Notes: generated from the letters alone by a model not told the origin. A stretch of DNA of 64,000 bases from Candidatus Hecatella orcuttiae (GCA_002011035.2 MTLY02000003.1:448001-512000), one strand, 5' to 3'; shown: positions 43,359-56,333, counted from the first letter of the stretch. Program-made: numbers and translations.

Positions 43359-44462
43359 TTGAAGCTTGTAACCATAGGTTTAGGGCAGGCTGGCGGGAGA
43401 ATCGTCGACCTACTCCTCCATTATGATACTTGGGGAAGACACAAGCATATTGTGGCCTCCTGTATGGCTGTTAATACCTCCAAGTCGGACCTCATAGGCT
43501 TGAGAACCATCCCCCAGAAGCACAGGGTCCTCATAGGGCAGAGCGCTGTGAAAGGCCACGGAGTAGGATTAAACAACGAGCTGGCGGCTAAAATAATGGA
43601 AAAAGACCATCCGATGATCAAGAGAGTGCTGAGTGAGCGGGAGCACTTGGACATCGACGCCTTCCTCCTGATAGCCGGGCTTGGCGGGGGCACAGGTTCA
43701 GGGGGAACCCCCGTGCTGGTTAAAGCATTGAAGGAGAGCTACGGGGAGCCTGTCTATGTCCTCGGAGTGCTGCCCAGCGACGATGAGGGAGGCCTGATGT
43801 GCTACAACGCGGCGAGAAGCCTGGTTTCCCTCAAAGACAAGGCGGACGGAATCATTCTTTTCGACAACAACCTCTGGAGGAGGGAAGGGCTGCCCATCCA
43901 AGCCAGCTACGACGCCATGAACCACCAGGTGGTCAAGCCTCTGCCTGTGCTGATGGGAGCCGGGGAGGTCACGGCTAAGGATAAAATAGGCGCCAAGGTG
44001 GTAGACGCCTCCGACATTATGAACACCATCCGCCAGTTCACTGTCCTAGGCCATTCGGAAGTCCAGCTGGGTGGGCTGTGGAGTAAAAAAGTGGACATCC
44101 ACGAGCTCATAAGACTGGCTGTGACGGGGAAGCTGACGGCTGAGTGCGACATAAAGCAGGCCCGCCGGGTCTTGTTCATGGTAGCCGGGCCTCCGCGGGA
44201 GATGAGCCGCGCCGGCATCGATCATGCTCGAAGCTGGCTGGAGAGCGTTGCCGTGAACGCGGAGCTGAGGGTGGGCGACTACCCGCTTCCCAAGTCTAAA
44301 ACCATGATGAGCATCGTCCTCTTCTCAGGCATGGAGGACACGCCGAGGGTGAAGGCGTTGGTGAAGAAGGCTCTGGAGTATCAGAAACTTCAGGAAACCC
44401 GGGAGGCGGGGGTAAGCAGCTTGGAGTTGGGCAAAGGTCGGCTGAAGCCTCTGATAGAGTAG
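43359..44462 (+). CDS. cetZ: CetZ-like tubulin/FtsZ-superfamily GTPase
   Basis: IGLGQAGGRIVD, KGHGVG, GLGGGTGSGG tubulin signature, FDN, VVDASDIMNT T7 loop, GDYP. Confidence 0.85.
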   Translation: MKLVTIGLGQAGGRIVDLLLHYDTWGRHKHIVASCMAVNTSKSDLIGLRTIPQKHRVLIGQSAVKGHGVGLNNELAAKIMEKDHPMIKRVLSEREHLDIDAFLLIAGLGGGTGSGGTPVLVKALKESYGEPVYVLGVLPSDDEGGLMCYNAARSLVSLKDKADGIILFDNNLWRREGLPIQASYDAMNHQVVKPLPVLMGAGEVTAKDKIGAKVVDASDIMNTIRQFTVLGHSEVQLGGLWSKKVDIHELIRLAVTGKLTAECDIKQARRVLFMVAGPPREMSRAGIDHARSWLESVAVNAELRVGDYPLPKSKTMMSIVLFSGMEDTPRVKALVKKALEYQKLQETREAGVSSLELGKGRLKPLIE

Positions 44463-44502
44463 CAGAGCTGGACTCCGAAAACTTTTTCAGCTCCCCAGCT
44501 TT

Positions 44503-45663
44503 ATGGGAGGCGGAGCAACCTTGCAGGTTTCAGGCTTCCGAAAGTTTTACCCCTTTTTCTTCGCAGTCCTTCTCTCCCTCGGCAGCTTGACGGCCTTGGC
44601 CTCCGCAGCCGCCCTCCAAGGGGAGGTCGAAGTTCTGCTGGAGGGGCTGAATCACCCTACAGGTTTGGCTGTGGACCAGGAGGGCAACGTTTACTTCACG
44701 GAGTTCGGTTTGGAGGGAGCTCTTAAAAAATACTGGGCGGACGGCCGGGTTTCCACGCTGCTCTCCAACCTCACCTCCGCGCCGGGGGTGGCAGTGGGGC
44801 CTGAAGGCGACGTCTACGTGGTGGAGGGCGCTGAAGGGGTGCTCTGGAGGCTGAGGCCCGGAGCTTCGGAGCCTGAGGCTGTGGTGGAGGAGACCTTGGG
44901 GATGTGGGACTTGGCCTTGGACGGAGACGGCAACCTTTACATTACCATCCGGTCGGTGGAGGGGGCGCTGCTGAGGCTGAGCCCCGGGGCTGAGCGGCCT
45001 GAAACCTTGGTGGAGGGTTTGAACGTCCCCTACGGAGTGGCCGTGGACGGAGCTGGCAGTGTCTACTGGGTGGAGTTTGGGAACAGAACGGAGAGCAACG
45101 GAGCCCTGAGGATGCTTCCCCCGGGGTCGGCGGAGCCTCTGACCCTGCTGGAGGGGCTGCGGAACCCCTACGACGTGGCTGTGGACGGCCGGGGCTGGGT
45201 TTACTTCACCGAGAAGGCGGGGACGCTGAAGGTTTTGAAGCCTGAGGGCGGGGAGCCGGAGGTAGTCCTCTCCGACCTGGGGAGGGTCTACGGCATCGCC
45301 TTCGACCCCTTGGGAAACCTGTACCTGGCTAGGTTCGGAAGCCCCGTTGGCACAGGCGACGGAGCCCTTTGGAGGCTTCGGGTTTCGGAGCCCCCTGCCC
45401 CCGAGGGCGAGGACGGGCGGCTGGCTGCTTTGGAAAGCCGGGTGGCTGAGCTTTCTTCGGAGGCTGCTTCCCTGGAAGCTCAGGTAGTTGCGTTGGGGGA
45501 CGCCGTGGACGACTTGGCCGGTGAGGTGGCTGGGGTTGAGGGTTTGATACGGGGAGTTCTGGCTTTGGCGGCTGTGGCCGTGGTCTTGGCTGTGGCTTCC
45601 CTGGGGCTTCAGTTGAAGGCCGGGGCTCCGAAGGGGAAGGCTGGGCGTCCTCGGAGAGTTTGA
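44503..45663 (+). CDS. surface beta-propeller (NHL-like) protein with coiled-coil stalk and C-terminal TM anchor
   Basis: Signal peptide; about six P.G.AVD..G.VY repeats; heptad stalk; TM followed by a basic tail. Confidence 0.82.
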   Translation: MGGGATLQVSGFRKFYPFFFAVLLSLGSLTALASAAALQGEVEVLLEGLNHPTGLAVDQEGNVYFTEFGLEGALKKYWADGRVSTLLSNLTSAPGVAVGPEGDVYVVEGAEGVLWRLRPGASEPEAVVEETLGMWDLALDGDGNLYITIRSVEGALLRLSPGAERPETLVEGLNVPYGVAVDGAGSVYWVEFGNRTESNGALRMLPPGSAEPLTLLEGLRNPYDVAVDGRGWVYFTEKAGTLKVLKPEGGEPEVVLSDLGRVYGIAFDPLGNLYLARFGSPVGTGDGALWRLRVSEPPAPEGEDGRLAALESRVAELSSEAASLEAQVVALGDAVDDLAGEVAGVEGLIRGVLALAAVAVVLAVASLGLQLKAGAPKGKAGRPRRV

Positions 45664-45713
45664 GGCTTGGCTGAGCTGGAGGGAAACGTGAAGCCGCTGT
45701 CTCGGATGGAAAC

Positions 45714-46064
45714 TTAGACTAGGAGCATTCGCATGGGTTTTAGTGTGCGTTTGAAGGGGTCGAGGACCAGTCCCAAAATTTCCAAGGTGACCACGCCTAA
45801 CAGTGCCTCATCACCCGCCTCTCCTAGAATGACGGGGGTGCGGGCTTCTCCTTGGGGAAGGATGATGTAGCATTCTGAAACCTTCCGGGTTATCGCGCTT
45901 CCGTCGGCTAGGGTGAAGGTGTGCTCCCGCATGGGCTTCAGCCCGATTTTCCGCCATACTTTTTGGGGAAGTAGGGAGTAGGTTGCGCTGCTGTCGACGA
46001 GGAAGCGCACTTGCTCTTCTCCAGCCGGGCCCTTCACGGTTCCTTCGAGGTGGGTGATGCCCAA
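45714..46064 (-). CDS. clan AA (retroviral-type) single-domain aspartic protease-like protein
   Basis: FLVDSSATYS, LADG, ALLGVVTLE.LGL..DP; the catalytic-triad Gly is replaced by Ser. Confidence 0.8.
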   Translation of the reverse strand: MGITHLEGTVKGPAGEEQVRFLVDSSATYSLLPQKVWRKIGLKPMREHTFTLADGSAITRKVSECYIILPQGEARTPVILGEAGDEALLGVVTLEILGLVLDPFKRTLKPMRMLLV

Positions 46065-46384
46065 AAAAATATCCCCGCTTTTGAACGCGGTTTTCCGCTC
46101 TATTAAGCTTTACGCCCGTTGGATTGTGTGGTGTGAGTTTTTTGCAAGGTTTTTCAGGACTGCTGGTTTTGTAGGAGGGTGAGTCCGTAGGGTCTGGAAT
46201 GTTCAACTTTTCTTGTTGAAGGGTTAAGCGAGGTGTTCTCAGAAAGTTTAAGGGCGTCTTTCCGCCGAAAACCTATGCCACCATATGCCACTATCGCGCA
46301 CTTTTAGGGACTCTGCTCTGGGGCTGGGGTGTTGTGGTTTTTCAGGCGGCTGTTTAGGGTGGTTTTTGTTGTTTTTTGTTTACA

Positions 46385-46420
46385 TTTGTATATAAAATGT
46401 AAGCTAAGGTATATATACTG
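46385..46420 (+). promoter_or_regulatory. S-layer gene promoter (TATA elements)
   Basis: TATATAAA at 46389 and GTATATATAC at 46409, upstream of the S-layer ATG. Confidence 0.5.
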
Positions 46421-46474
46421 TCGGAGGGCTAGTTTGAGGTTGGAAATATCTAACGGTATGAGTGTGAGAAAAAG

Positions 46475-49400
46475 ATGAATACCATAGGCTTGAATATCGA
46501 CATGAAAAAAGGTTTAGGCATAGCAACCATCGCCATACTCCTCCTAGGAGTACTAGCCGCCATACCCATCGTCCTACCCAAAGCCCACGCAGGCACCCTG
46601 GGAACCATAACCGTATCATCCGACAGGTTCAGCGGCGACAACCTACTTCAGATAACCATCACAGACCCAGATATCGCCGCTGCCACTGCTGGAATGCCCA
46701 GTGTTGAGGTAAACGGCGTAGCCATAGACCTCTATCAAATAGTGGGAGGCGCTTGGGTTGCGTGGATCGTGGACGACGCCTTTGATACTCCTACAAACGA
46801 AGGCCGTCCAGCTAATCCGCCCAACCAAGAAGCCAACCTCGGCGCTAACGAACCGAATGCTGATGACGACGGTGATGGCGTCACAGAGTTGGGCGAATTT
46901 GATGAGGTCGTTGAAGAGTTCGACTTTGCTGATGCAGGTGTGACCTCTGTTACGATCATCTACCATGATGTAGATCCCTTCCAGGATGTTTCTGTGACCG
47001 TAAGCTACGGTGCCATCACGGGCGCTGTTACCCTTGACCGTGAAGAGTACCCACTAGGCGCTACTGTCAACATCGATGTAGAGGACGTAGACCTGAACGC
47101 CGACCCCACAGCTGCGGAGACAACCGCAGCCTTGCTGAACCTCGCCACCACCACAGGTGGTGCTGTAGGCGTCCAGACTATGACTGAAACAGGTCCCACC
47201 ACGGGCGTGTTTGAGGACGCCATAGCGCTGCCTGCGGGAACAGCAGTAGGAGACATCATCACGGTGACCTACGATGCCGGAGGAGACAACGTGGTGGTAA
47301 CCGCCGTGGTCACAGCCAACACAGGCGCCGTGACCTTGGACAAGGCGGAGTACGACATCAACGATGTGGCTACCATAACCCTGACTGACCCAGACCTTAA
47401 CCTCAACGCGGAGGCCGCTGACGAGGTTAACAACGTTAACGTGCTGAAAGTCACAGTAGACCTGCCGGCTGCTGTAGGAAACTACGCTGTGGACATGGAT
47501 GAGACAGGCGTCAACACAGGTGTCTTCACCGGCCAGTTCTCCTTCGTCCTAGACGACGGAGATGCAAACGACGACAGCACCGCTGGCAACGACCCCATCA
47601 TCGAAGTGGCCAGTGGAGCTACGATCACCGTAACCTACACCGACGCCAACACGGCGGACGGTCGGACGAACGTGGACCTCACAGCTACGGCTGACTTCGT
47701 CACCCACACAGGAACTGTTGCCTTGGACAGGGACACCTACGGCCCCAACGCCGTAGCTACCGTCACCGTGACGGACATGGACCTGAACACCGACTCCAGC
47801 GCTCGGGAGAGATACTACTCCTTAAACGTGCTGGATGTCACCAGCGCAGCTGACCAGAACGCTCCCCACGCCATCATGATCTTGGAGACGGGACCTGACA
47901 CAGGTGTCTTCACCGGCCAGTTCCGGTTCACCACCACAGACGGTGCAGGAACTGCTGGCACCATTCCGACGGTGGAAGTTGCCATCGGCGGAACAGTGAC
48001 TGTAACTTACACCGATGCGGTGGATGCAGCCGGTAATGCCGTGGACGTGACTGACACAGCTACCTTCAGAAGCCAGACAGGGTCCATCGACATCCTCAAG
48101 TCGGTGATCTCGCCGGACACCACCATCCTAGTCCAACTAACCGATCCAGACCTCAACACTGACGCCTACGTGGTAGACGACGCCTTCGACAGTCTGGCGG
48201 ACACAGCTCTGACCTTCTACAGCACAAGCTGGCCTCTTACCTCTGGCACTGAAGATGAACACCAGTTCGAAGATAGTGCTGCGGTTGAAACCGACTTCGA
48301 CGAGACGGGTGTTAACACAGGAGTCTTCGAGATACGAATAGACCTCAGCCACGCAACTGTTCTCGAAGCAGCCGGAGATACATTCTACGTTAAATACATC
48401 GATCCGGCTAACAGTGCAGGCGGCACCTCCACCCTCCAAGACACAGCCTCAGTTAGGACTAACACAGGGACATTGTCGCTGGACAAATCCGAATACAGCA
48501 TCGGCGATACGATAACGATAACCCTGACCGACCCAGATCTGAACACTGACCCGGAAGCAGCGGACACAACTCCCGACGACGGTGACGACACACTGGAAGA
48601 CAGCGAAGTCCTGATAAAGAGCAGCACGGATCCCACAGGCGAGGTCATAGTTCTCACAGAAACAGGCTGGGACACCAACGTCTTCACCGACACGATTATC
48701 GTGTCTGAAACCCAAGCCACAAATGACGAGTACCTTCTAGTATCCCGCGCCGACACGGTCACCGTCCAATACAGAGACGCGGCCACAGCCGGAGGCGGAG
48801 GAGCTATAACCATCACCGCTACAGCGACGATCACAGCCACCACAGGCACCCTCGAACTGGACAAGACCGTCTACACGCCCAGAGGAAAGGTCACCGTCAC
48901 AGTGACCGACCCCGACCTCAACGTCAACTCCCTCGTCAACGACGAACTTGATGAAACAACGGAAAGAGCCAGAGCCTTCACCACCAGCGACCCCACAGGC
49001 ATCTACTTCACCCTCACAGAAACAGGGCCTGACACAGGCGTCTTCCAAGCCATCATCACGTTGGCAGCAGCCACCAACGATGCTGCCGACGAGTTGAAGG
49101 CTGCGGACGACGACGGCCTGACGGTGGTCTACATCGACGCTGCGGATGCCGCGGGCAACTTGGATGTAGCCGTCAGGAAGACAGCTTTGGTCACCTACAA
49201 CACAGGCATCCTCAGCTTCGACATGGCCTCCTACACCATGGATGACTCACCTGTGGTCACCCTCAATGACCCCGACCTCAACCTTGAACCAGCCCTCAGA
49301 GAATCCGCCAACATCGCAATAACTTCAAGCACCGACCCCGCGGGCATAAGGCTGACCTTAACCGAGACAGCTGTCGACTCCGGAGTATTCTCGGAGAGCT

Positions 49401-49900
49401 TCACCTTCACCACAGGCACATCCCAAGGCACCAAGCTGCAGGCTGCCGTGGGCGACATCATCACAGCGGTCTACGACGACGCCGCCAACGCCGACGGTCT
49501 GGCACAGAGGATTAAGGCCACCGCCACCCTGACGGTGACCCCGGTTGCGCCCGGAGTTGTCATCTCCGCCGGTGCACCGTCTCTGCTGGACGTCAACGGC
49601 AACCCCATCGCCGCAGCCACCGTGGGCACCACGGTGCTCCTGTCCACCGAGATGACCAACAGCGCCGCTGAAGACCAAGCCATGCTCTACATCGTCCAGG
49701 TCAAAGACGCCGCAGGCCGTGTGGTGAGCCTCAGCTTCATCAGCGGCACCGTCCCAGCCGGAGCCACCTACACCTTCGGAGTTCCGTGGATTCCGGCTGA
49801 AGCCGGAGACTACACCGTCGAAGTCTTCGCCTGGCACAGCTGGACAGACCCGACACCCCTATCAGAAGTCAGCACAGCCACAGTGACCGCCACCTCGTAA
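46475..49900 (+). CDS. S-layer protein, Nitrosopumilus/thaumarchaeal-type Ig-repeat
   Basis: Signal peptide; highly D/T/A-rich; seven ETGxxTGVF-like and multiple DPDLN repeats; C-terminal YIVQV.D..G.VVSL...W.P..AG.YTVEVF.W domain; strongly biased codons. Confidence 0.82.
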   Translation: MNTIGLNIDMKKGLGIATIAILLLGVLAAIPIVLPKAHAGTLGTITVSSDRFSGDNLLQITITDPDIAAATAGMPSVEVNGVAIDLYQIVGGAWVAWIVDDAFDTPTNEGRPANPPNQEANLGANEPNADDDGDGVTELGEFDEVVEEFDFADAGVTSVTIIYHDVDPFQDVSVTVSYGAITGAVTLDREEYPLGATVNIDVEDVDLNADPTAAETTAALLNLATTTGGAVGVQTMTETGPTTGVFEDAIALPAGTAVGDIITVTYDAGGDNVVVTAVVTANTGAVTLDKAEYDINDVATITLTDPDLNLNAEAADEVNNVNVLKVTVDLPAAVGNYAVDMDETGVNTGVFTGQFSFVLDDGDANDDSTAGNDPIIEVASGATITVTYTDANTADGRTNVDLTATADFVTHTGTVALDRDTYGPNAVATVTVTDMDLNTDSSARERYYSLNVLDVTSAADQNAPHAIMILETGPDTGVFTGQFRFTTTDGAGTAGTIPTVEVAIGGTVTVTYTDAVDAAGNAVDVTDTATFRSQTGSIDILKSVISPDTTILVQLTDPDLNTDAYVVDDAFDSLADTALTFYSTSWPLTSGTEDEHQFEDSAAVETDFDETGVNTGVFEIRIDLSHATVLEAAGDTFYVKYIDPANSAGGTSTLQDTASVRTNTGTLSLDKSEYSIGDTITITLTDPDLNTDPEAADTTPDDGDDTLEDSEVLIKSSTDPTGEVIVLTETGWDTNVFTDTIIVSETQATNDEYLLVSRADTVTVQYRDAATAGGGGAITITATATITATTGTLELDKTVYTPRGKVTVTVTDPDLNVNSLVNDELDETTERARAFTTSDPTGIYFTLTETGPDTGVFQAIITLAAATNDAADELKAADDDGLTVVYIDAADAAGNLDVAVRKTALVTYNTGILSFDMASYTMDDSPVVTLNDPDLNLEPALRESANIAITSSTDPAGIRLTLTETAVDSGVFSESFTFTTGTSQGTKLQAAVGDIITAVYDDAANADGLAQRIKATATLTVTPVAPGVVISAGAPSLLDVNGNPIAAATVGTTVLLSTEMTNSAAEDQAMLYIVQVKDAAGRVVSLSFISGTVPAGATYTFGVPWIPAEAGDYTVEVFAWHSWTDPTPLSEVSTATVTATS

Positions 49901-49916
49901 AAGGAGCTGACCCAAA

Positions 49917-50618
49917 ATGTACCCGATGACACCCCAAAAATCCCTACCTTTCTTTATGGTAGCAGTGCTCATCGTCGCCGCAGCAGTTTTGCCTTTGGCT
50001 TTCGCCGCCCCCACGGTTGCCACGGATAAGGACACCTACGAGCCGGGGGACAGCCTTTCGGTGAGCGGTACAGCTGCGGCCAACGCTTTGGTGTCTCTTC
50101 AGCTGTTCGACCCCGACGGGGTTCGGGTGGCCATAGCCCAAGCGGAGGCCGACGCCGCCGGCGCCTACTCCGCCGCCAACATCTACACTTTCTCCGCCCA
50201 AGACCCCACAGGCACCTGGACGGTGAAAGCCTACGAAGGCGGCATAACCGCGGAGACTACCTTCCAACTGGTCTCCGAGATAACGCCCCCGGTAGAAGAT
50301 AGAGTCGCCGAACTCGAAGCCCAAATCGCCGACCTCACCAGCCAACTGGAAGCCCTCCAAGCCGAACTCGCCGCCATCGAACTCCAACCAGGCCCTGAAG
50401 GTCCCCAAGGCCCTCCAGGCCCTGAAGGTCCCCAAGGCCCTCCAGGCCCAGCCGGCCCAGCCGGTCCAGCCGGCCCTGAAGGCCCACCGGGCCCACCGGG
50501 TCCTGCCGGCCCAGCCGGTCCAGCAGCACCCATGGGGCTGACCTACGGAGCCATCATCATCGCCATCATAGCCATAGCCCTCAGCGCCGCCAGCCTAGCC
50601 AGAAAACCCAAAGCCTAA
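49917..50618 (+). CDS. membrane-anchored Ig + coiled-coil + collagen-like protein (SlaB-like stalk)
   Basis: Signal peptide, TDKDTY.PGD Ig domain, heptads, 15 Gly-Pro-Y triplets, TM with basic tail. Confidence 0.85.
49965..50243 (+). repeat. 279-bp exact direct repeat, copy 1
   Basis: Identical by eye to 50799-51077 (offset 834). Confidence 0.92.
50391..50525 (+). repeat. collagen-like (Gly-Pro-Y)15 coding repeat
   Basis: Includes an exact 27-bp tandem ggccctgaaggtccccaaggccctcca x2 (50391-50444). Confidence 0.95.
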
Positions 50619-50638
50619 ACCCAAACCCAAAACCCCCC

Positions 50639-50651
50639 TTTTTATTTTTTT
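50639..50651 (+). terminator. oligo-T terminator of the S-layer operon
   Basis: TTTTTATTTTTTT about 20 nt after the stop codon. Confidence 0.65.
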
Positions 50652-50729
50652 CAACACTTCCTCGGTTAAGGTAATATAACCTAGCAGATAGTATAGTGGA
50701 TCACATACAAGCTCACCTAGGTGAAATGA

Positions 50730-51986
50730 TTGTTGAATAAAACCCTAGAAAAAACCCCCTCCCTTCACACCCTCTTGGCCGCCGGTATCCTAGCGGTTGT
50801 GCTCATCGTCGCCGCAGCAGTTTTGCCTTTGGCTTTCGCCGCCCCCACGGTTGCCACGGATAAGGACACCTACGAGCCGGGGGACAGCCTTTCGGTGAGC
50901 GGTACAGCTGCGGCCAACGCTTTGGTGTCTCTTCAGCTGTTCGACCCCGACGGGGTTCGGGTGGCCATAGCCCAAGCGGAGGCCGACGCCGCCGGCGCCT
51001 ACTCCGCCGCCAACATCTACACTTTCTCCGCCCAAGACCCCACAGGCACCTGGACGGTGAAAGCCTACGAAGGCGGCGCCTTCGCCACCGCCACCTTTAC
51101 CCTCCGAGGAGTGGTGGACACCACGCCTCCAAGCCTAACCCTCAACTTCACGCCCCTCAAGGCCGTCTACGGCAAAGCTGACACCTTCACCATCACCCTC
51201 ACCGCCGACGAACCCCTCCAATCCGCCGTCATCCACGTCAACCAGCAGGGAGCTCCCCTAGTCATCGACGGAAAATGGGCTGCCTCCGTGGAAGCCGCGG
51301 CCTCCCCAGAAGACCCCGCCCGCTGGAGCGGAAGCTACACCATCATGGAAGGCTACGACGGCCCGGCTCAAGTCCACGCCGTAGGCATAGACCTAGCCGG
51401 AAACAAGGGTGAAGCCACCGCCACCTTCCAAGTCGACACCGTCGCCCCCCAGCTGACCGTCACCGCGCCCTCCGCCACCACCGAGGCCACCGTCACCGTC
51501 ACCGGAACCGTCGACGACCCGGATATCACCGAGATAACCCTAACCTACGACGCTGCGGTTAAAACAGTCAGCGTGAGCGAGGGCTCCTGGAGCGCCACCA
51601 TCACCCTCCCAGCCGCGGGAAGCTACACCGTCCAAGCCACAGCCGTTGACGCTGCGGGCAACGTGGGCTCATCCCCCGCTGTCTCCATTGTCTACACTCC
51701 GCCCCCACCCCTAGAAGCCGAGGACATCATCGGCCCCATCCGCGCCGACATCTCCGATGTGAAAGGCGGCATCTCGGATGTGAAAGGCGGCATCTCAGAG
51801 GTTAAGGGCAGCATCTCCGAAGTCAGAGGCAGCATCTCCGAGCTGAGGGATGAAACCCGAGCCCTCAGCACAGCTGTCTCCAGTCTCACCGTCTACGTCA
51901 TGGTCGCCGTTGTGCTCTCCCTCGTCGCCGCAGTCGCCGCCATCATCTCCGTGGTAACCATCGCCCGCAAGGTCGTGCTCAAATAA
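50730..51986 (+). CDS. membrane-anchored triple-Ig + heptad-repeat stalk protein (SlaB-like)
   Basis: First Ig domain identical to that of the upstream gene; DTTPP/DTVAP and D.AGN Ig motifs; ISDVKGG heptads; C-terminal TM. Confidence 0.85.
   Translation: MLNKTLEKTPSLHTLLAAGILAVVLIVAAAVLPLAFAAPTVATDKDTYEPGDSLSVSGTAAANALVSLQLFDPDGVRVAIAQAEADAAGAYSAANIYTFSAQDPTGTWTVKAYEGGAFATATFTLRGVVDTTPPSLTLNFTPLKAVYGKADTFTITLTADEPLQSAVIHVNQQGAPLVIDGKWAASVEAAASPEDPARWSGSYTIMEGYDGPAQVHAVGIDLAGNKGEATATFQVDTVAPQLTVTAPSATTEATVTVTGTVDDPDITEITLTYDAAVKTVSVSEGSWSATITLPAAGSYTVQATAVDAAGNVGSSPAVSIVYTPPPPLEAEDIIGPIRADISDVKGGISDVKGGISEVKGSISEVRGSISELRDETRALSTAVSSLTVYVMVAVVLSLVAAVAAIISVVTIARKVVLK
50799..51077 (+). repeat. 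279-bp exact direct repeat, copy 2
   Basis: Identical by eye to 49965-50243. Confidence 0.92.
51750..51854 (+). repeat. 21-bp degenerate coding repeat x5 (IS[D/E]V[K/R]G[G/S] heptads)
   Basis: ISDVKGG ISDVKGG ISEVKGS ISEVRGS ISELRDE. Confidence 0.9.
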
Positions 51987-52039
51987 GGAGGAAAGACATT
52001 CCCAGCCCTAAATTCCTACATCAAGACTGTGAACAACCC

Positions 52040-52046
52040 TTTTTTT
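52040..52046 (+). terminator. oligo-T terminator candidate
   Basis: T7 run downstream of the stalk-protein gene. Confidence 0.45.
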
Positions 52047-52110
52047 CAGACCACCGCTTCCAGCGGAAACCTTTTAGCCTTCCCCTTCAGATAACTAAAC
52101 TCAGATAGGT

Positions 52111-52686
52111 TTGAACAGGAAACTTCTAGCAGCCCGCGAAGACTTGGTTAAAAAGATAGCTCAGATAGCCAAAAGAAAAAACCTAACTCTCTTCGCCTTC
52201 ATCAACGAAACCTTGGAGCAGCTGCTGAAATCCGAAGAGAAAGGCGTCCCCCTGCCGCAGATAGTGGAAGAATACTTCATCCTCAAGACGGCGAAGGAAG
52301 CCGGCTTCAACCTAACGCCGGAAAGTCTTTTCCATGGGCTTCTGGAAAAAGTCTTCCAGAAGGACGATCGAGCCCTCCGCGAGGCTTGGAGGGACATGGG
52401 AGGTTGGTTTGGGAAATACTTCAAAACCCTTTACTCCAATCAAGACTCTCTAAAGCTCATCGAGAAAGTCATGAGGACCATTCTGTGGGAGGCCTCGGAT
52501 TTCTCCCTCACGAAGGACGGTGAGGAAGTTTACCTCCGATGCATAGGCTCCCGGTGTCCCGCCTCCCACACTCTGCTCCTCTCCGCTCTCCTATCCGGCT
52601 TCATGGAAGCCTTCGACTACACGCCAGTTCGGAAGGACTTGGCCCGGGGGATAATATCCTTGACCTTCGTGAAAAGGAGGGAGTAA
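52111..52686 (+). CDS. putative ribbon-helix-helix + V4R/H-NOX-like domain protein (paralog 1)
   Basis: KLLAAREDLVKKIAQIAKRKNLTLFAFINETLEQ RHH-like start; W...G.WFGKY; aligns end to end with the next gene. Confidence 0.65.
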   Translation: MNRKLLAAREDLVKKIAQIAKRKNLTLFAFINETLEQLLKSEEKGVPLPQIVEEYFILKTAKEAGFNLTPESLFHGLLEKVFQKDDRALREAWRDMGGWFGKYFKTLYSNQDSLKLIEKVMRTILWEASDFSLTKDGEEVYLRCIGSRCPASHTLLLSALLSGFMEAFDYTPVRKDLARGIISLTFVKRRE

Positions 52687-52690
52687 AACC

Positions 52691-53308
52691 ACGACTGCGC
52701 CTAAAAAAGACAAAAAATTCATAGCTGTGAGAAGCGACCTCCTTCACAAGGTTATCGAAATATCCAACCGTCGAGGCACAACTGTCTACGGCTTCGTTAA
52801 CGAAATCTTCGAACAGGCTATCAAGGCTGATGAGCTTAACGCCACTCCAACCCAAGTGGTGGAATACTACAGCCTCATGGAGACCATGAAAAAGGCCGGC
52901 GCGGTGATCATCACCCTCGACATCCTAAACCATTGTATTGAGAAGCTTTCCCGCATAGACAAAGACCTGAGCAAGAAATGGTACACATCGGGTTTATGGT
53001 ATGGAAAATACCTCTCAGCCAAATTTCAAGACCCCTTGGAAACCTTGAAAAAAATATTGACCACCTGCTTCTGGGAGATCACGGAGGTGGAGCTGATCCA
53101 GAAAGACGAGGAAAACCTCACCCTGCGAGTGTTAGCTCCCAACCACACGGAGGTTCACACAGAGCTACTCCTGAGATTCGTCGAAGGAATTGTGAACTCC
53201 CTAGACTACAAGGTTCAAAGGGAAGAACACTGGAAAGGCATCATCCTCTTAGACCTTCAGAAAAGAATCATGCCCGCGGACATGGAATTAGAGATCGAAA
53301 CCATATAA
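52691..53308 (+). CDS. putative ribbon-helix-helix + V4R/H-NOX-like domain protein (paralog 2)
   Basis: KFIAVRSDLLHKVIEISNRRGTTVYGFVNEIFEQ; WY.SG.WYGKY; homology extends upstream of the ORF-track GTG 52727, so an ACG start at 52691 is proposed. Confidence 0.6.
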   Translation, partial: TTAPKKDKKFIAVRSDLLHKVIEISNRRGTTVYGFVNEIFEQAIKADELNATPTQVVEYYSLMETMKKAGAVIITLDILNHCIEKLSRIDKDLSKKWYTSGLWYGKYLSAKFQDPLETLKKILTTCFWEITEVELIQKDEENLTLRVLAPNHTEVHTELLLRFVEGIVNSLDYKVQREEHWKGIILLDLQKRIMPADMELEIETI

Positions 53309-53566
53309 CCCCTGCCGACGCCGGGGAATCCGCCCTTCAAAGGCCAACTTTATATATTCAGAGTCACGGAAAACGCTGATCGAAATGTACTTAAACTTCA
53401 AACCTCGCCGCAAAATAGACAGGAGTTGAGTTTTTCTTGTAAAAGCCCCTCTTCAACACGGCTTTTTTTAAGCATTTCATTTCTACAAGGTTAATACTTT
53501 TTGGAGTTACCCTATTTAAGGTACTACGCTGGATTGAGTGCTCTATCTAAAGGTGAGCCGGGAAAA

Positions 53567-54214
53567 ATGTTCAAAAATTGGAGTAAACCAGAAGGCGGGT
53601 CGGTGTTCCGGCGGTTTGAAGAAAAGATTCACAAGGGTCCACCGCTCAAGGAAAAAATAGCGCAAACCATTTTCAGGCTTAAACTTCAGCAAAGAAAACT
53701 GGAAGAAGCCGCATCCAAGCTTCAGCGCCATGACCGTGAATTGTTCGAAAAATGCGTTGCCGCCGAGCTGGCCAAGGATGATGCCAGAGCCGCCATCTAC
53801 GCCAACGAATGCGCCGAAGTGAGAAAAATGGCGAAGATAATCCTCCTCAGCCAGTTAGCCTTAGAGCAGGTAAGCCTGAGGCTGGAAACTGTCGAGGAAT
53901 TTGGAGACGTCCTAACCCAGATGGCCCCGGTGAGCGATGTGGTCCACAGCCTCAAAGGACGTTTAGCTGGAGTGATCCCCGAGGTCTCCTACGAACTCGG
54001 CTCCATCGGCGAGATGCTCAACGGGATGATGGTTGAGGCTGGAGCTGCCTCCAACGTTTCATGGACACCTGAAGCAGCTGGAGAAGAGTCAAAAGCCATC
54101 CTCAACCAAGCGTCTCTTGTGGCTGAAGAGAGGATGAAGGAGAAATTCCCCGACCTCCCCGCCGTCGCTACTGCTCAACGTGAAGCCACAGAAGGAGAAA
54201 AGCCCCTCCGTTAA
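53567..54214 (+). CDS. ESCRT-III / CdvB paralog (no winged helix)
   Basis: Snf7 core A.IYANE.AE.RKM...LEQ..LRLETV...GD; terminal FPDLP MIM2-like motif; ATG 53567 after AGGTGA. Confidence 0.9.
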   Translation: MFKNWSKPEGGSVFRRFEEKIHKGPPLKEKIAQTIFRLKLQQRKLEEAASKLQRHDRELFEKCVAAELAKDDARAAIYANECAEVRKMAKIILLSQLALEQVSLRLETVEEFGDVLTQMAPVSDVVHSLKGRLAGVIPEVSYELGSIGEMLNGMMVEAGAASNVSWTPEAAGEESKAILNQASLVAEERMKEKFPDLPAVATAQREATEGEKPLR

Positions 54215-54282
54215 GGTGTTCGACTTCCCGCAAGCAGAAATGGGTGAACCGTAGAAGAGTGAAGATGAGGGATTCTCTCTAA

Positions 54283-55167
54283 ATGTCCTTCCTTCGAAAG
54301 GTCCTCCCTTCCCTAAAGGCGGCGAAAGAAATGCACTTCACTAGAACACCTCTTAAAGAGAAGATCGCCCAAGCAGTCTACAGGCTGGAAACTCAGCTGA
54401 GCCGCTTAGAGCAGACCTCGGCGAAGCTTCAGCAAAGAGACCGGGAAATGTTCGAGAGATGCATAGGCGCCAAGGCCAACAACGACACAGCCCACGCGGT
54501 GATCTACGCCAATGAATGTGTGGAAATCAGAAACATGGCTAAAATCGTTCTAAGCAGCCAGCTGGCCCTCGAGAAGGTTATCCTCAGACTTCAAACCATC
54601 GAGGAAGTAGGCGACGTCATGGTTCACATGGCCCCGGTGCTGAGCATCGTAAAGGAAACCCGGGGAAACCTGAAGGGAGTGATCCCCGAGGTCTCCCAAG
54701 AGCTTGATGAAATCAACATCTTCCTCAACAACACCTTCTTAGAGGTGGGGACCACCCCGGAGCACATGGCCAATTTAGAGGCTTCCTCCTCCGAAGCCAA
54801 GAAAGTCCTTGAAGAAGCAGCAACCATAGCCGAGCGGAAGGTGAAAGAAGAATACCCCAAGCTCCCCGAACCTCCCCTCACAGCCCCAGAACCCCCAAGC
54901 CCTGAAGCTGAAGCCCTAACCGTCGGAGGTTCTCCGGAGCCAGCACCCTTCGAGGAAGAGAAACCGGTGGAGGCAGCTGAGCCTCCTACCCCCATCCAGG
55001 AAGTTCCCTTCGAACAGTTGAAAGAGCAAGTGTACGACTTCATAAGAGAATGCGGTGGAGAATTGAATCTAAGCCAGTGCGCTCAGGCTCTCAACGCTGA
55101 CATGGAATCTGTTCAGAAAGCCCTGGCTAAACTTGAGGAAGAGGGCCGAATTCGAGTTCAAACCTAG
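54283..55167 (+). CDS. cdvB: ESCRT-III CdvB with Pro-rich linker and C-terminal winged helix
   Basis: Snf7 core, YPKLPEPP MIM2-like motif, VYDFIRECGGELNLSQCA..L...L..EGRI winged helix. Confidence 0.9.
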   Translation: MSFLRKVLPSLKAAKEMHFTRTPLKEKIAQAVYRLETQLSRLEQTSAKLQQRDREMFERCIGAKANNDTAHAVIYANECVEIRNMAKIVLSSQLALEKVILRLQTIEEVGDVMVHMAPVLSIVKETRGNLKGVIPEVSQELDEINIFLNNTFLEVGTTPEHMANLEASSSEAKKVLEEAATIAERKVKEEYPKLPEPPLTAPEPPSPEAEALTVGGSPEPAPFEEEKPVEAAEPPTPIQEVPFEQLKEQVYDFIRECGGELNLSQCAQALNADMESVQKALAKLEEEGRIRVQT

Positions 55168-55196
55168 GCTGAAGCCTAGCGGGGGAACTGTTAGCG

Positions 55197-56333
55197 ATGA
55201 GCGCCCTCGAAGAACTGGAGCGCTACGCGGTTAAACATGCGTCTGAAGCCGTGCGGATGGACAGCCAAGGCGCCCGGGGAATGGCTGCCTCCGAGTATCA
55301 GCATGCCGTAGAAATTCTCCTTAAACTCTGCTCCCTCTACCCTAACGTTCCCCAGAACAGAATTTACATGAGCCGCATAGAAGCCTACAGGAAGAGGATC
55401 AAGGAGCTTCAAAAAGAGGGAGGGCAAGAGGAAAAAGCTGCGGAAGCCACAGCGGCAACCGGCCGCGTCGACTGTAAACTGAAGGAGAAACCTCGAGTTA
55501 AATGGGAGGACATTGCAAACCTAGAAAACGCCAAAAGAGCAATCCTCGAGGCTGTGGTCTACCCTGTTAAGAGGCCGGATTTGTTTCCCCTAGGCTGGCC
55601 TAAAGGCATCCTGCTCTTCGGGCCTCCTGGCTGCGGTAAAACCCTCATAGCCGCTGCCACGGCCAACGAAATCGACGCCAACTTTTACTGTGTGGACGCA
55701 GCGGCGATAATGTCCAAGTGGCTGGGGGAGTCGGAGAGAAACGTGGCTAAAATTTTTGAGGAAGCCAGAAGTTCATCCGCAAAGGGGAAGCCTTCTATCA
55801 TTTTCGTCGACGAGATAGACTCCCTCATGGCCTACCGTTCAGAGGAAGTAGGCGGAGAGGCTAGGGCGCGAAACCAGTTCCTCAAAGAAATGGACGGAAT
55901 CCTCGACAAAAACCGAAACCTCTACGTCTACGTTTTCGGAGCCACCAACAAGCCTTGGGCTTTAGACGAGCCTTTTGTGAGGCGTTTCCAGAAGAGGATT
56001 TTCGTCCCCCTCCCAGACCATCATGCCCGCTTGGAAATGATCAAAATCTACGCTAGGGAGCTAAACCTAGCCCCGGAAGTTGACGTGGAGGACTTGGCTA
56101 AAAGAATGGATGGCTTCAGCGGAAGCGACATCCGAGATCTCCTCCAATCAGCTCAGATAAAAGTGGTCAGAGAGTTCTTCGAAAACAACGGCTCCGCCTC
56201 CAACCCCCAAGCCAAGCCCAGAGCCATAACTTGGCATGATCTCCAAGAGGTTCTCTCAGAGCGAAAAACCAGCGTATCCCAAAACCTCCTCAAAGCCTAC
56301 AGAGAATGGGACTCCGCTTTCAAAGCCCTCTAG
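55197..56333 (+). CDS. cdvC: Vps4-like AAA ATPase CdvC
   Basis: N-terminal MIT helices; GPPGCGKT, SKWLGESE, FVDEID, GATNKPWALD, RRFQKRI. Confidence 0.93.
   Translation: MSALEELERYAVKHASEAVRMDSQGARGMAASEYQHAVEILLKLCSLYPNVPQNRIYMSRIEAYRKRIKELQKEGGQEEKAAEATAATGRVDCKLKEKPRVKWEDIANLENAKRAILEAVVYPVKRPDLFPLGWPKGILLFGPPGCGKTLIAAATANEIDANFYCVDAAAIMSKWLGESERNVAKIFEEARSSSAKGKPSIIFVDEIDSLMAYRSEEVGGEARARNQFLKEMDGILDKNRNLYVYVFGATNKPWALDEPFVRRFQKRIFVPLPDHHARLEMIKIYARELNLAPEVDVEDLAKRMDGFSGSDIRDLLQSAQIKVVREFFENNGSASNPQAKPRAITWHDLQEVLSERKTSVSQNLLKAYREWDSAFKAL

Follow-up and report, generated by a model that had tools for sequence, protein, structure and literature searches.

A tandem ribbon-helix-helix protein pair as a candidate regulator of S-layer genes in Bathyarchaeia and other Thermoproteota

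The genome of Candidatus Hecatella orcuttiae, a Bathyarchaeia archaeon with relatives in Hecatellales, carries two adjacent paralogous genes, P191 and P193, between the genes of its surface layer (S-layer) and an operon for Cdv division proteins. On the evidence of sequence and structural models, we think it somewhat probable that this pair regulates transcription of the S-layer. The deeply conserved link at this locus is that of an S-layer anchor with the pair, a ribbon-helix-helix (RHH) family, and not one of wall assembly, cell shape and fission. The conspicuous "supercluster" of envelope, cytoskeleton and division genes that surrounds the pair is mostly the arrangement of one family. We analyzed the locus in a stretch of 64,000 nucleotides (nt) (GCA_002011035.2 MTLY02000003.1:448001-512000), called the window here, and all positions are counted on the whole window. 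The host genome (G000) comprises 1.75 Mb in 3 contigs and is 97% complete. Open reading frame (ORF) starts were assigned by a simple rule, and the genomes compared are samples of their groups.

RESULTS

P191 joins an RHH domain to a sensor-like fold

The AlphaFold2 model of P191 has a predicted local distance difference test score (pLDDT) of 90. Residues 1 to 46 align with the RHH domain of PutA on operator DNA over 44 residues, with a Z-score of 7.5 and a root mean square deviation (rmsd) of 1.0 (VIA-align). The same domain also aligns with NikR, Arc, CopA, and many other RHH entries, and the rmsd to DNA-bound RHH structures is 1.0 to 1.7. Residues 50 to 190 of the model consist of a helical N-terminal part and a four-stranded sheet with an inserted helix, as in the V4R/H-NOX/Bet3 fold. 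This domain is best matched by the domains with which the activators DmpR and PoxR sense phenol (Z-score of 8.9 over 141 residues, VIA-align). The next matches are BcsD (8.3), the Bet3-type subunits of TRAPP (7.7 and 7.4), the V4R protein MJ1460 (7.1), and then H-NOX. Foldseek aligned the domain with H-NOX, BcsD, and Bet3 at E values of 3e-4 to 2e-3. Conserved residues of the V4R-like pocket are W93, G97, W99, G101, and C144.

P193 is 33% identical to P191, and scans of Pfam and NCBIfam gave no family match for either protein. Among 23 members of the pair family, three match Pfam RHH_5 (7.4e-6), two match a FitA-like family (5e-4), and three have a weak HNOB match (0.091); V4R is not among the 25 families listed. 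The profile match of the pair family to RHH structures in the PDB is weak (0.07 to 0.4).

The P193 reading frame is open upstream of the called GTG start (52673 to 52726), where it encodes ...PKKDKKFIA, a match to the RHH strand of the orthologues. A GGAGGG lies at 52675 to 52680 and a near-cognate ACG at 52691. From the sequence, the true start of P193 very likely lies before the called GTG, which suggests either a non-canonical start or re-initiation after the P191 stop codon.

We also predicted the P191-P193 complex, which received weak support, with a score of 0.52 against 0.00 for the best of three controls. Of 157 solved complexes, 116 reached the mark applied to these predictions, as did 2 of 215 mismatched pairs; scores of 0.60 or less took in only 18 of the 157 solved complexes, yet both of the passing mismatches. 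At least 93% of the contacts agreed among the runs, and the partner pLDDT was at least 80.

The pair family is widespread and anciently duplicated

Members of the pair family were found in 134 of 301 Thermoproteota genomes. Of 151 Bathyarchaeia genomes, 66 have them, almost always in the form of two neighboring genes. None of the 53 database relatives has a functional name, being either unnamed or called "hypothetical protein." The single-copy member of Sulfolobus acidocaldarius (AAY79465.1) is labeled "conserved Crenarchaeal protein." In the tree, the first genes form one clade (29/30 rows) and the second genes another (27/28 rows, with P193 in this clade), and the single-copy forms branch separately with a support of 100/100. 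Because first-gene and second-gene copies form separate clades, the duplication that gave rise to P191 and P193 is old. The order of the two genes is kept in 28 of 29 pairs. Searches of the open-access literature found no paper on the pair family, on RHH plus V4R proteins next to S-layer genes, or on the slaA TGTATACA element described below.

The pair often lies beside S-layer anchor genes

In the Hecatellales-like family of the host genome (family f1), a SlaB-type anchor gene lies immediately upstream of the pair in 6 of 8 genomes. In the other Bathyarchaeia families, the pair is immediately followed on its own strand by a gene for a protein of 627 to 1320 amino acids (aa) with a signal peptide, immunoglobulin-like (Ig-like) domains, a coiled coil, and a C-terminal membrane helix. 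This protein ends in ...AIVSLMQISRKIAG or similar, and the same anchor ends the 418-aa protein of the window. The C-terminal membrane anchor is conserved across 18 aligned proteins, and a profile built on it matched the host genome at 3.0e-16 and 53 of the 151 Bathyarchaeia genomes in all. Pair and anchor were both found in 47 of these genomes, the anchor only in 6 (4 of them weak matches), the pair only in 19, and neither in 79; the related genomes among them are not independent. In 35 of the 47 genomes, from 7 families, the pair and the SlaB-type anchor are at most 8 kb apart on one contig. Outside Bathyarchaeia, the pair neighbors surface-protein genes in five genomes (G159, G277, G322, G398, and G167), and in G322 the neighbors are a homologue of the window S-layer protein and a SlaB-like gene.

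A palindrome abuts the TATA box of S-layer promoters

The S-layer promoters of the host genome and of two family members, G002 and G009, share GTTTACATTTGT...AAGCT.A..TATATATAC. Across families, the promoters of anchor and S-layer genes contain a TGTNNACA palindrome; the distal box reads TGTATACA and the proximal one, directly at the TATA box, TGTTTACA or TGTAGACA. Within 200 nt, the TGTNNACA motif occurs in all 18 S-layer or anchor promoters, with at least two sites in 12 of them. The 361 control upstream regions drawn from these loci include 19 with one site and 5 with two; each of the 5 belongs to a further anchor gene. We later checked loci that were fetched after the motif had been defined, using the strict motif and 200 nt. 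Six loci from outside the class have, close to the family member, a gene for a large anchored or S-layer-like surface protein, and the promoter of this gene contains the motif in G159 (2 sites), G277 (1 site), and G322 (2 sites).

By strict count, TGTATACA lies 43 to 60 nt before slaA in three of four Sulfolobaceae genomes; the fourth has an ambiguous slaA start. Three Sulfolobaceae genomes (G227, G241, and G407) each have a single copy of the composite TGTATACA-NN-TGTATAWA. In G227 and G407 it is in the slaA promoter, and in G241 it is at the expected start of slaA, as judged from the location of slaB. The predicted operator in the slaA promoter of S. acidocaldarius is TGTATACA-NN-TGTATAAA. 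The candidate operator of the window has the same layout as these slaA promoters.

Family f31 served as a negative control, as 44 of its 45 genomes have an S-layer homologue and none has the pair. Its S-layer promoters (loci L092 to L104) carry a different palindrome, TG(G/A)ACAA-N-TTGT(C/T)CA, at the same spot directly upstream of the TATA box. The strict TGTNNACA motif was found in 2 of 9 evaluable promoters (13 were fetched), both times within the other palindrome. The f31 palindrome may be the operator of a different regulator.

A TGTNNACA site also occurs upstream of the pair itself: in families f1 and f2, 6 of 8 such promoters have one, that of the window included, and elsewhere 2 of 21 do. 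The host genome as a whole has 18 copies of TTTACATTT, where about 10 would be expected. Three close TGTNNACA pairs in this genome were considered as regulatory sites and do not look so; the one examined is inside a coding region.

A model for regulation by the pair, and points that weigh against it

We infer sequence-specific DNA binding by the pair from the conserved palindromes. P191 and P193, probably as a hetero-oligomer, would bind the TGTNNACA palindromes immediately next to the TATA box in the S-layer promoter, and would set S-layer transcription in response to a small-molecule ligand; the target, the direction of control, and the ligand are predictions of this model. In family f1 the pair would also bind its own promoter, and its place directly upstream of the cdv operon may help to time the supply of coat with division.

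Several observations speak against this model. At an E value of 0.01, the window P191 and P193 give no RHH match in Pfam, and the fold Z-scores of P191 (7 to 9) are middling for VIA-align. P193 as called lacks the RHH strand, and the open stretch upstream of it contains no ATG, GTG, or TTG. There are the 19 Bathyarchaeia genomes with the pair and no anchor match, and in Sulfolobaceae and in families f37, f39, f48, and f52 no S-layer gene adjoins the family member. The 18 promoters that gave the first count of the TGTNNACA motif are those on which it was defined, and related genomes do not count as independent evidence. Three of the six out-of-class loci (G175, G398, and G167) have no strict site within 200 nt. 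Finally, a different factor could recognize the palindrome at the TATA box.

The link to cdv genes belongs mostly to one family

The pair and the genes cdvB, cdvB, and cdvC are adjacent in all 8 assessable f1 genomes, which represent 6 genera (G000, G001, G002, G005, G006, G008, G009, and G010). This count leaves out G007, in which the pair is on a 2.3-kb contig, and G003 and G004, in which the pair was not found. In the other Bathyarchaeia families, a Cdv-like gene is near the pair in 1 of 28 loci, although CdvB was found in 123 of the 151 genomes. Therefore, the Cdv link belongs to one family, plus an independent case in G288 (family f57), which is from another class. There, the order is pair, two genes, cdvB, and cdvA, with the pair about 2 kb upstream of cdvB-cdvA and on the strand of these genes (L076 3962-8592); this is a second, independent pair-Cdv adjacency. 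The single locus among the 28 is in G044 (L053 7004-8734), where a 577-aa ORF with a CdvB-like C-terminal part (E value of 7e-45) stands beside a pair gene that is apparently split in two.

Tubulin-family genes also occur near the pair. CetZ lies within the block in G005 and G009, inverted, between the anchor and the pair, and in G006 it is beside the anchor on a separate contig. In family f10, a very divergent tubulin-superfamily gene of G023 (L017 4907-5944; Pfam Tubulin, 1.6e-8; 22% identity to the window CetZ) lies between the pair and an anchored S-layer gene, and such a gene is next to the pair in G067 and G079 as well (L043 and L044). ORFs of about 890 aa with a weak tubulin-domain match recur in many Bathyarchaeia genomes (G151:C48:199877-200116 and G106:C104:27584-27814, among others), and two such tubulin-like ORFs lie 8 to 10 kb from the pair.

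The initial annotation had read the locus as an archaeal analogue of the bacterial dcw cluster that links wall assembly, shape, and fission. On this reading, it would be one selected envelope-cytoskeleton-division cluster in which CetZ, the S-layer, the anchors, the pair, and CdvB/CdvC are co-regulated and act at division. The part of this claim that stood is the order pair-cdvB-cdvB-cdvC in every assessable f1 genome, which has been kept although the orthologues are only 43 to 72% identical. The recurrence of Cdv-like genes in G288 and G044 and of tubulin-family genes within the module in two families (CetZ in f1 and the divergent tubulin in f10) agrees with a single cluster. So do a peak of slaA and slaB in M-G1 described for Saccharolobus islandicus (PMC12216602) and the report that the S-layer speeds ESCRT-III division in S. 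acidocaldarius (PMC12207459). However, the order is kept within one family only and not across distant lineages. CdvA, 71 kb from cdvB, and two further cdvB paralogues are encoded elsewhere in the genome, and the link to CetZ is occasional: no tubulin-family gene, CetZ included, was found in G002 (100% complete) or G007 (97% complete). At the G001 locus there is no S-layer module; the pair directly adjoins an ABC transporter, and a different contig carries the S-layer genes. Within the locus, the units are separated by T-runs and TATA boxes. Coupling of the pair to division is unproven, because none of 7 cdvB promoters in the family carries the TGTNNACA motif. We consider such a co-regulated cluster doubtful.

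Alternatively, the cdv adjacency may be neutral, having arisen once in the family ancestor and not yet been broken, with the CetZ adjacency equally accidental and only the link between S-layer and pair functional. Three observations would fit: only G288 and G044 show the adjacency outside one family, the S-layer module and CetZ change place within that family, and the cdvB promoter was found to have no shared operator. Yet gene order and orientation have been kept over 6 genera in which P191 identity is down to 43 to 50%, and the adjacency recurs independently in f57. We regard neutrality as quite unlikely.

That the pair is instead a cytoplasmic Bet3/BcsD-like scaffold for S-layer export, anchoring, or patterning, with the RHH domain used for dimerization only, is very unlikely: BcsD and TRAPP Bet3-type proteins, which the C-terminal domain resembles, are hetero-oligomeric scaffolds and tandem paralogues would be consistent with a hetero-oligomer, but the closest structures are domains through which activators of transcription sense ligands, the N-terminal domain resembles RHH domains solved on DNA, the anchors have cytoplasmic tails of only about 5 residues, and the promoters of the neighboring genes carry a conserved palindrome that differs where the pair family is missing.

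Organization of the locus

ORF calls and family scans found every gene that the initial annotation had placed between 43359 and 56333, all on the plus strand except for one minus-strand protease gene (Table 1). The regulatory model that we favor for the pair concerns the S-layer genes upstream of it, which we describe together with the remaining genes below.

Table 1. Genes and candidate promoter elements of the locus, in window coordinates
Feature	Position	Strand	Length	Description
CetZ-type tubulin-family GTPase	43359..44462	+	367 aa	Pfam CetZ_C 5.2e-37 and Tubulin 4.6e-32, both above cut-off
Exported NHL/SBBP beta-propeller protein	44503..45663	+	386 aa	SBBP/NHL repeats, coiled-coil stalk, C-terminal membrane helix
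Retropepsin-like aspartic protease	45714..46064	-	116 aa	gag-asp_proteas 2.3e-7 and Asp_protease_2 5.6e-7, both above cut-off
Candidate operator, S-layer promoter	46377..46394	+		TGTTTACA-TT-TGTATATA, read from sequence; element also in the orthologous promoters of G002 and G009
TATA-box-like element, S-layer gene	46409..46418	+		GTATATATAC, predicted by reading the sequence
S-layer lattice protein	46475..49900	+	1141 aa	Ig-like repeat modules, signal peptide, no anchor
SlaB-like anchor 1	49917..50618	+	233 aa	Ig/MG2-like head, coiled coil, collagen-like Gly-Pro-X stalk, C-terminal membrane helix
SlaB-like anchor 2	50730..51986	+	418 aa	Ig-like domains, coiled coil, conserved C-terminal membrane anchor ending ...VVTIARKVVLK
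Candidate auto-regulatory site upstream of P191	52028..52035	+		TGTGAACA, then T7 run
P191	52111..52686	+		RHH domain, residues 1-46; V4R/H-NOX/Bet3-like sensor fold, residues 50-190
P193, paralogue of P191	52727..53308	+		Called start GTG
CdvB1/B2-like ESCRT-III	53501..54214	+	237 aa	NF041005 2e-61, 207 bits, under equivalog cut-off of 350
CdvB	54283..55167	+	294 aa	C-terminal winged-helix-like tail; NF041005 6.8e-56 (under cut-off of 350), NF041008 3.7e-45
CdvC/Vps4	55197..56333	+	378 aa	MIT and AAA ATPase; NF041006 1.1e-153, 511 bits, cut-off 650

The 1141-aa lattice protein matches the solved 1734-aa archaeal "cell surface protein" of PDB 8c8k (E value of 1e-49), which we take to be the S-layer protein of Nitrosopumilus, and the NCBIfam Kustd1514 S-layer family (2.8e-60, under cut-off). 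Two genes follow it that encode proteins with the architecture of SlaB, judging by sequence features and Ig-like Pfam matches: a signal peptide, a beta-sandwich head, a coiled-coil stalk, and a C-terminal membrane helix. Their matches to the curated SlaB family NF040788 (5.4e-12 for anchor 1 and 3.3e-8 for anchor 2) are both far under its cut-off of 700. The C-terminal 83 residues of anchor 2 match PDB 8qox_B (3.6e-5), presumably SlaB. The lattice protein, the two SlaB-type anchors, and the propeller-stalk protein are best explained as building a two-component S-layer.

Anchor 1 matches Pfam Collagen above cut-off (2.4e-8), and its Gly-Pro-X run is encoded at 50364 to 50530 with a repeat period of 9 nt. 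A collagen triple helix may replace the usual coiled-coil stalk in this protein. A 313-aa anchor of G045 (L037 3817-4758) likewise has a collagen-like stalk. The segments 49965 to 50243 and 50799 to 51077 form a perfect direct repeat of 279 nt, so that the N-terminal heads of the two anchors are identical at the DNA level; the repeat would reflect either recent gene conversion or an assembly effect.

The propeller-stalk protein has an N-terminal hydrophobic segment in addition to its coiled coil and C-terminal membrane helix, and it scored 99.5 bits against the ScyD/ScyE family (cut-off, 80). An orthologue with 36% identity adjoins the S-layer gene in G009. The retropepsin-like protease has a copy with 30% identity in G002 (L013 10577-10939), at a different position, between SlaB-like anchor 2 and the pair.

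The tubulin-family GTPase contains a GGGTGSG motif. It is nearer to the solved structures 4b46 (2.7e-90) and 4b45 (7.7e-65), which we take to be Haloferax CetZ1 and CetZ2, than to FtsZ (2r6r, 7.8e-13), and it scored 81.9 bits against the FtsZ equivalog TIGR00065, which has a cut-off of 295. Outside the window, the host genome encodes a second CetZ-like paralogue of 446 aa with a C-terminal zinc-ribbon-like extension (G000:C3:340660-341997). An FtsZ-like gene was found neither in the host genome nor in the 10 other family genomes searched.

Of the two ESCRT-III genes, the second (cdvB) has a weak Snf7 match (0.0021, under cut-off), and its winged helix was seen solely as a weak GntR-type match (0.0016). 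CdvC matches MIT (2.2e-7; 31.3 bits, cut-off 30) and AAA (3.8e-36). CdvA is encoded outside the window (G000:C3:429542-429883; PF18822, 82.6 bits, above cut-off).

Runs of T residues followed by TATA-like boxes lie after the ABC ATPase gene upstream of CetZ, after SlaB-like anchor 1, after SlaB-like anchor 2, and between P193 and cdvB. The gaps within cdvB-cdvB-cdvC measure 68 and 29 nt and have no T-run. These signals fit the earlier view that the locus is not one transcript. A scan for bacterial-type hairpin terminators gave 12 sites against 17.7 expected and was uninformative, as was a scan for bacterial-type promoters. The stretch is best explained as three units, each with its own promoter-like signals: CetZ with four exported proteins, P191-P193, and cdvB-cdvB-cdvC. 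In seven family genomes, the cdvB promoter (53309 to 53500 in the window) has conserved elements of its own, TTCTACAAG(G)CTTAATA and, farther from the gene, TTTTT(CC)TGTAAAA.

DISCUSSION

Among the nearest known parallels to the pair are regulators that join a DNA-binding module to a small-molecule sensor. NikR and the DmpR/PoxR sensor domains belong to such regulators, and the V4R-type fold gives the best structural match of the pair; MsvR is a winged-helix plus V4R regulator. The pair has no Pfam V4R match, and its combination of an RHH domain with a V4R-like fold did not turn up in our searches.

Two known systems place RHH factors at division genes. In haloarchaea, CdrS and CdrL are RHH transcription factors encoded directly upstream of a division gene, and CdrL is described as binding the promoter of the neighboring operon only (PMC7439475). 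As portrayed there, CdrS is a minimal RHH protein, CdrL adds a double zinc ribbon and is restricted to Halobacteria, and the target is ftsZ2, whereas the window has two RHH plus V4R-like proteins with the S-layer gene as their predicted target and cdvB as their neighbor. The differences in domain content and distribution rule out the pair as CdrL. It is also ruled out as a substitute for CdvA, since CdvA is present and the fold is RHH plus V4R-like. The small RHH factor aCcr1 of Sulfolobales binds a short palindrome at a division-phase promoter, that of cdvA, and is presented as a bare RHH protein (PMC9976878). At our locus the boxes precede the TATA box, and the cdv promoters showed none. A regulatory link of the pair to division is plausible, given the M-G1 peak of slaA and slaB, the aid that the S-layer gives to ESCRT-III division, and these RHH factors at division genes.

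The S-layer itself resembles the SlaA/SlaB coat of Sulfolobales and the 8c8k protein, with an anchorless lattice protein, a stalked protein that has a C-terminal membrane helix, and sequence similarity to 8c8k and 8qox_B. It differs from SlaA/SlaB in having two anchors, one with a collagen-like stalk, and a propeller-stalk protein, and its lattice protein is of the 8c8k type and not of the SlaA type.

The gene content of the locus also recalls the bacterial dcw cluster, in which wall and division genes stand side by side. The dcw gene order is kept across phyla; that of the window is kept within one family only. A further likeness is to the Halo_adaptin ESCRT neighborhood of haloarchaea, where CetZ-like, beta-propeller, Ig-like, ESCRT-III-like, and Vps4-like genes occur together (PMC10936438). 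The propeller and Ig-like proteins are read in that account as cytoplasmic, adaptin-like cargo binders, and its description of the Vps4-like ATPase gives it no MIT domain, whereas those of the window are exported proteins of S-layer type and its CdvC has MIT. The Halo_adaptin neighborhood parallels the locus in gene content, but its topology is different.

The pair bears on how archaea may regulate the synthesis of their S-layer and keep it in step with growth and division. In Saccharolobus, slaA and slaB transcripts peak at the division phase, and the passages of the paper that report this name no regulator (PMC12216602). A broader proposal, which we put forward as unlikely, is that RHH plus V4R-like proteins are the missing S-layer regulator across Thermoproteota, Sulfolobus included, that they sense a small molecule related to the envelope or the cell cycle by means of the V4R-like pocket, and that they drive the division-phase burst of slaA and slaB through TGTNNACA. 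In the Hecatellales-like family they would also time the adjacent cdvB-cdvB-cdvC, and the supply of coat would then be coupled to ESCRT-III fission. The pair is a candidate S-layer regulator from a phylum-wide family that databases call "hypothetical," and it comes with a precise predicted operator. The occurrence of that operator once per genome in three Sulfolobaceae would make the idea directly testable in a tractable model organism.

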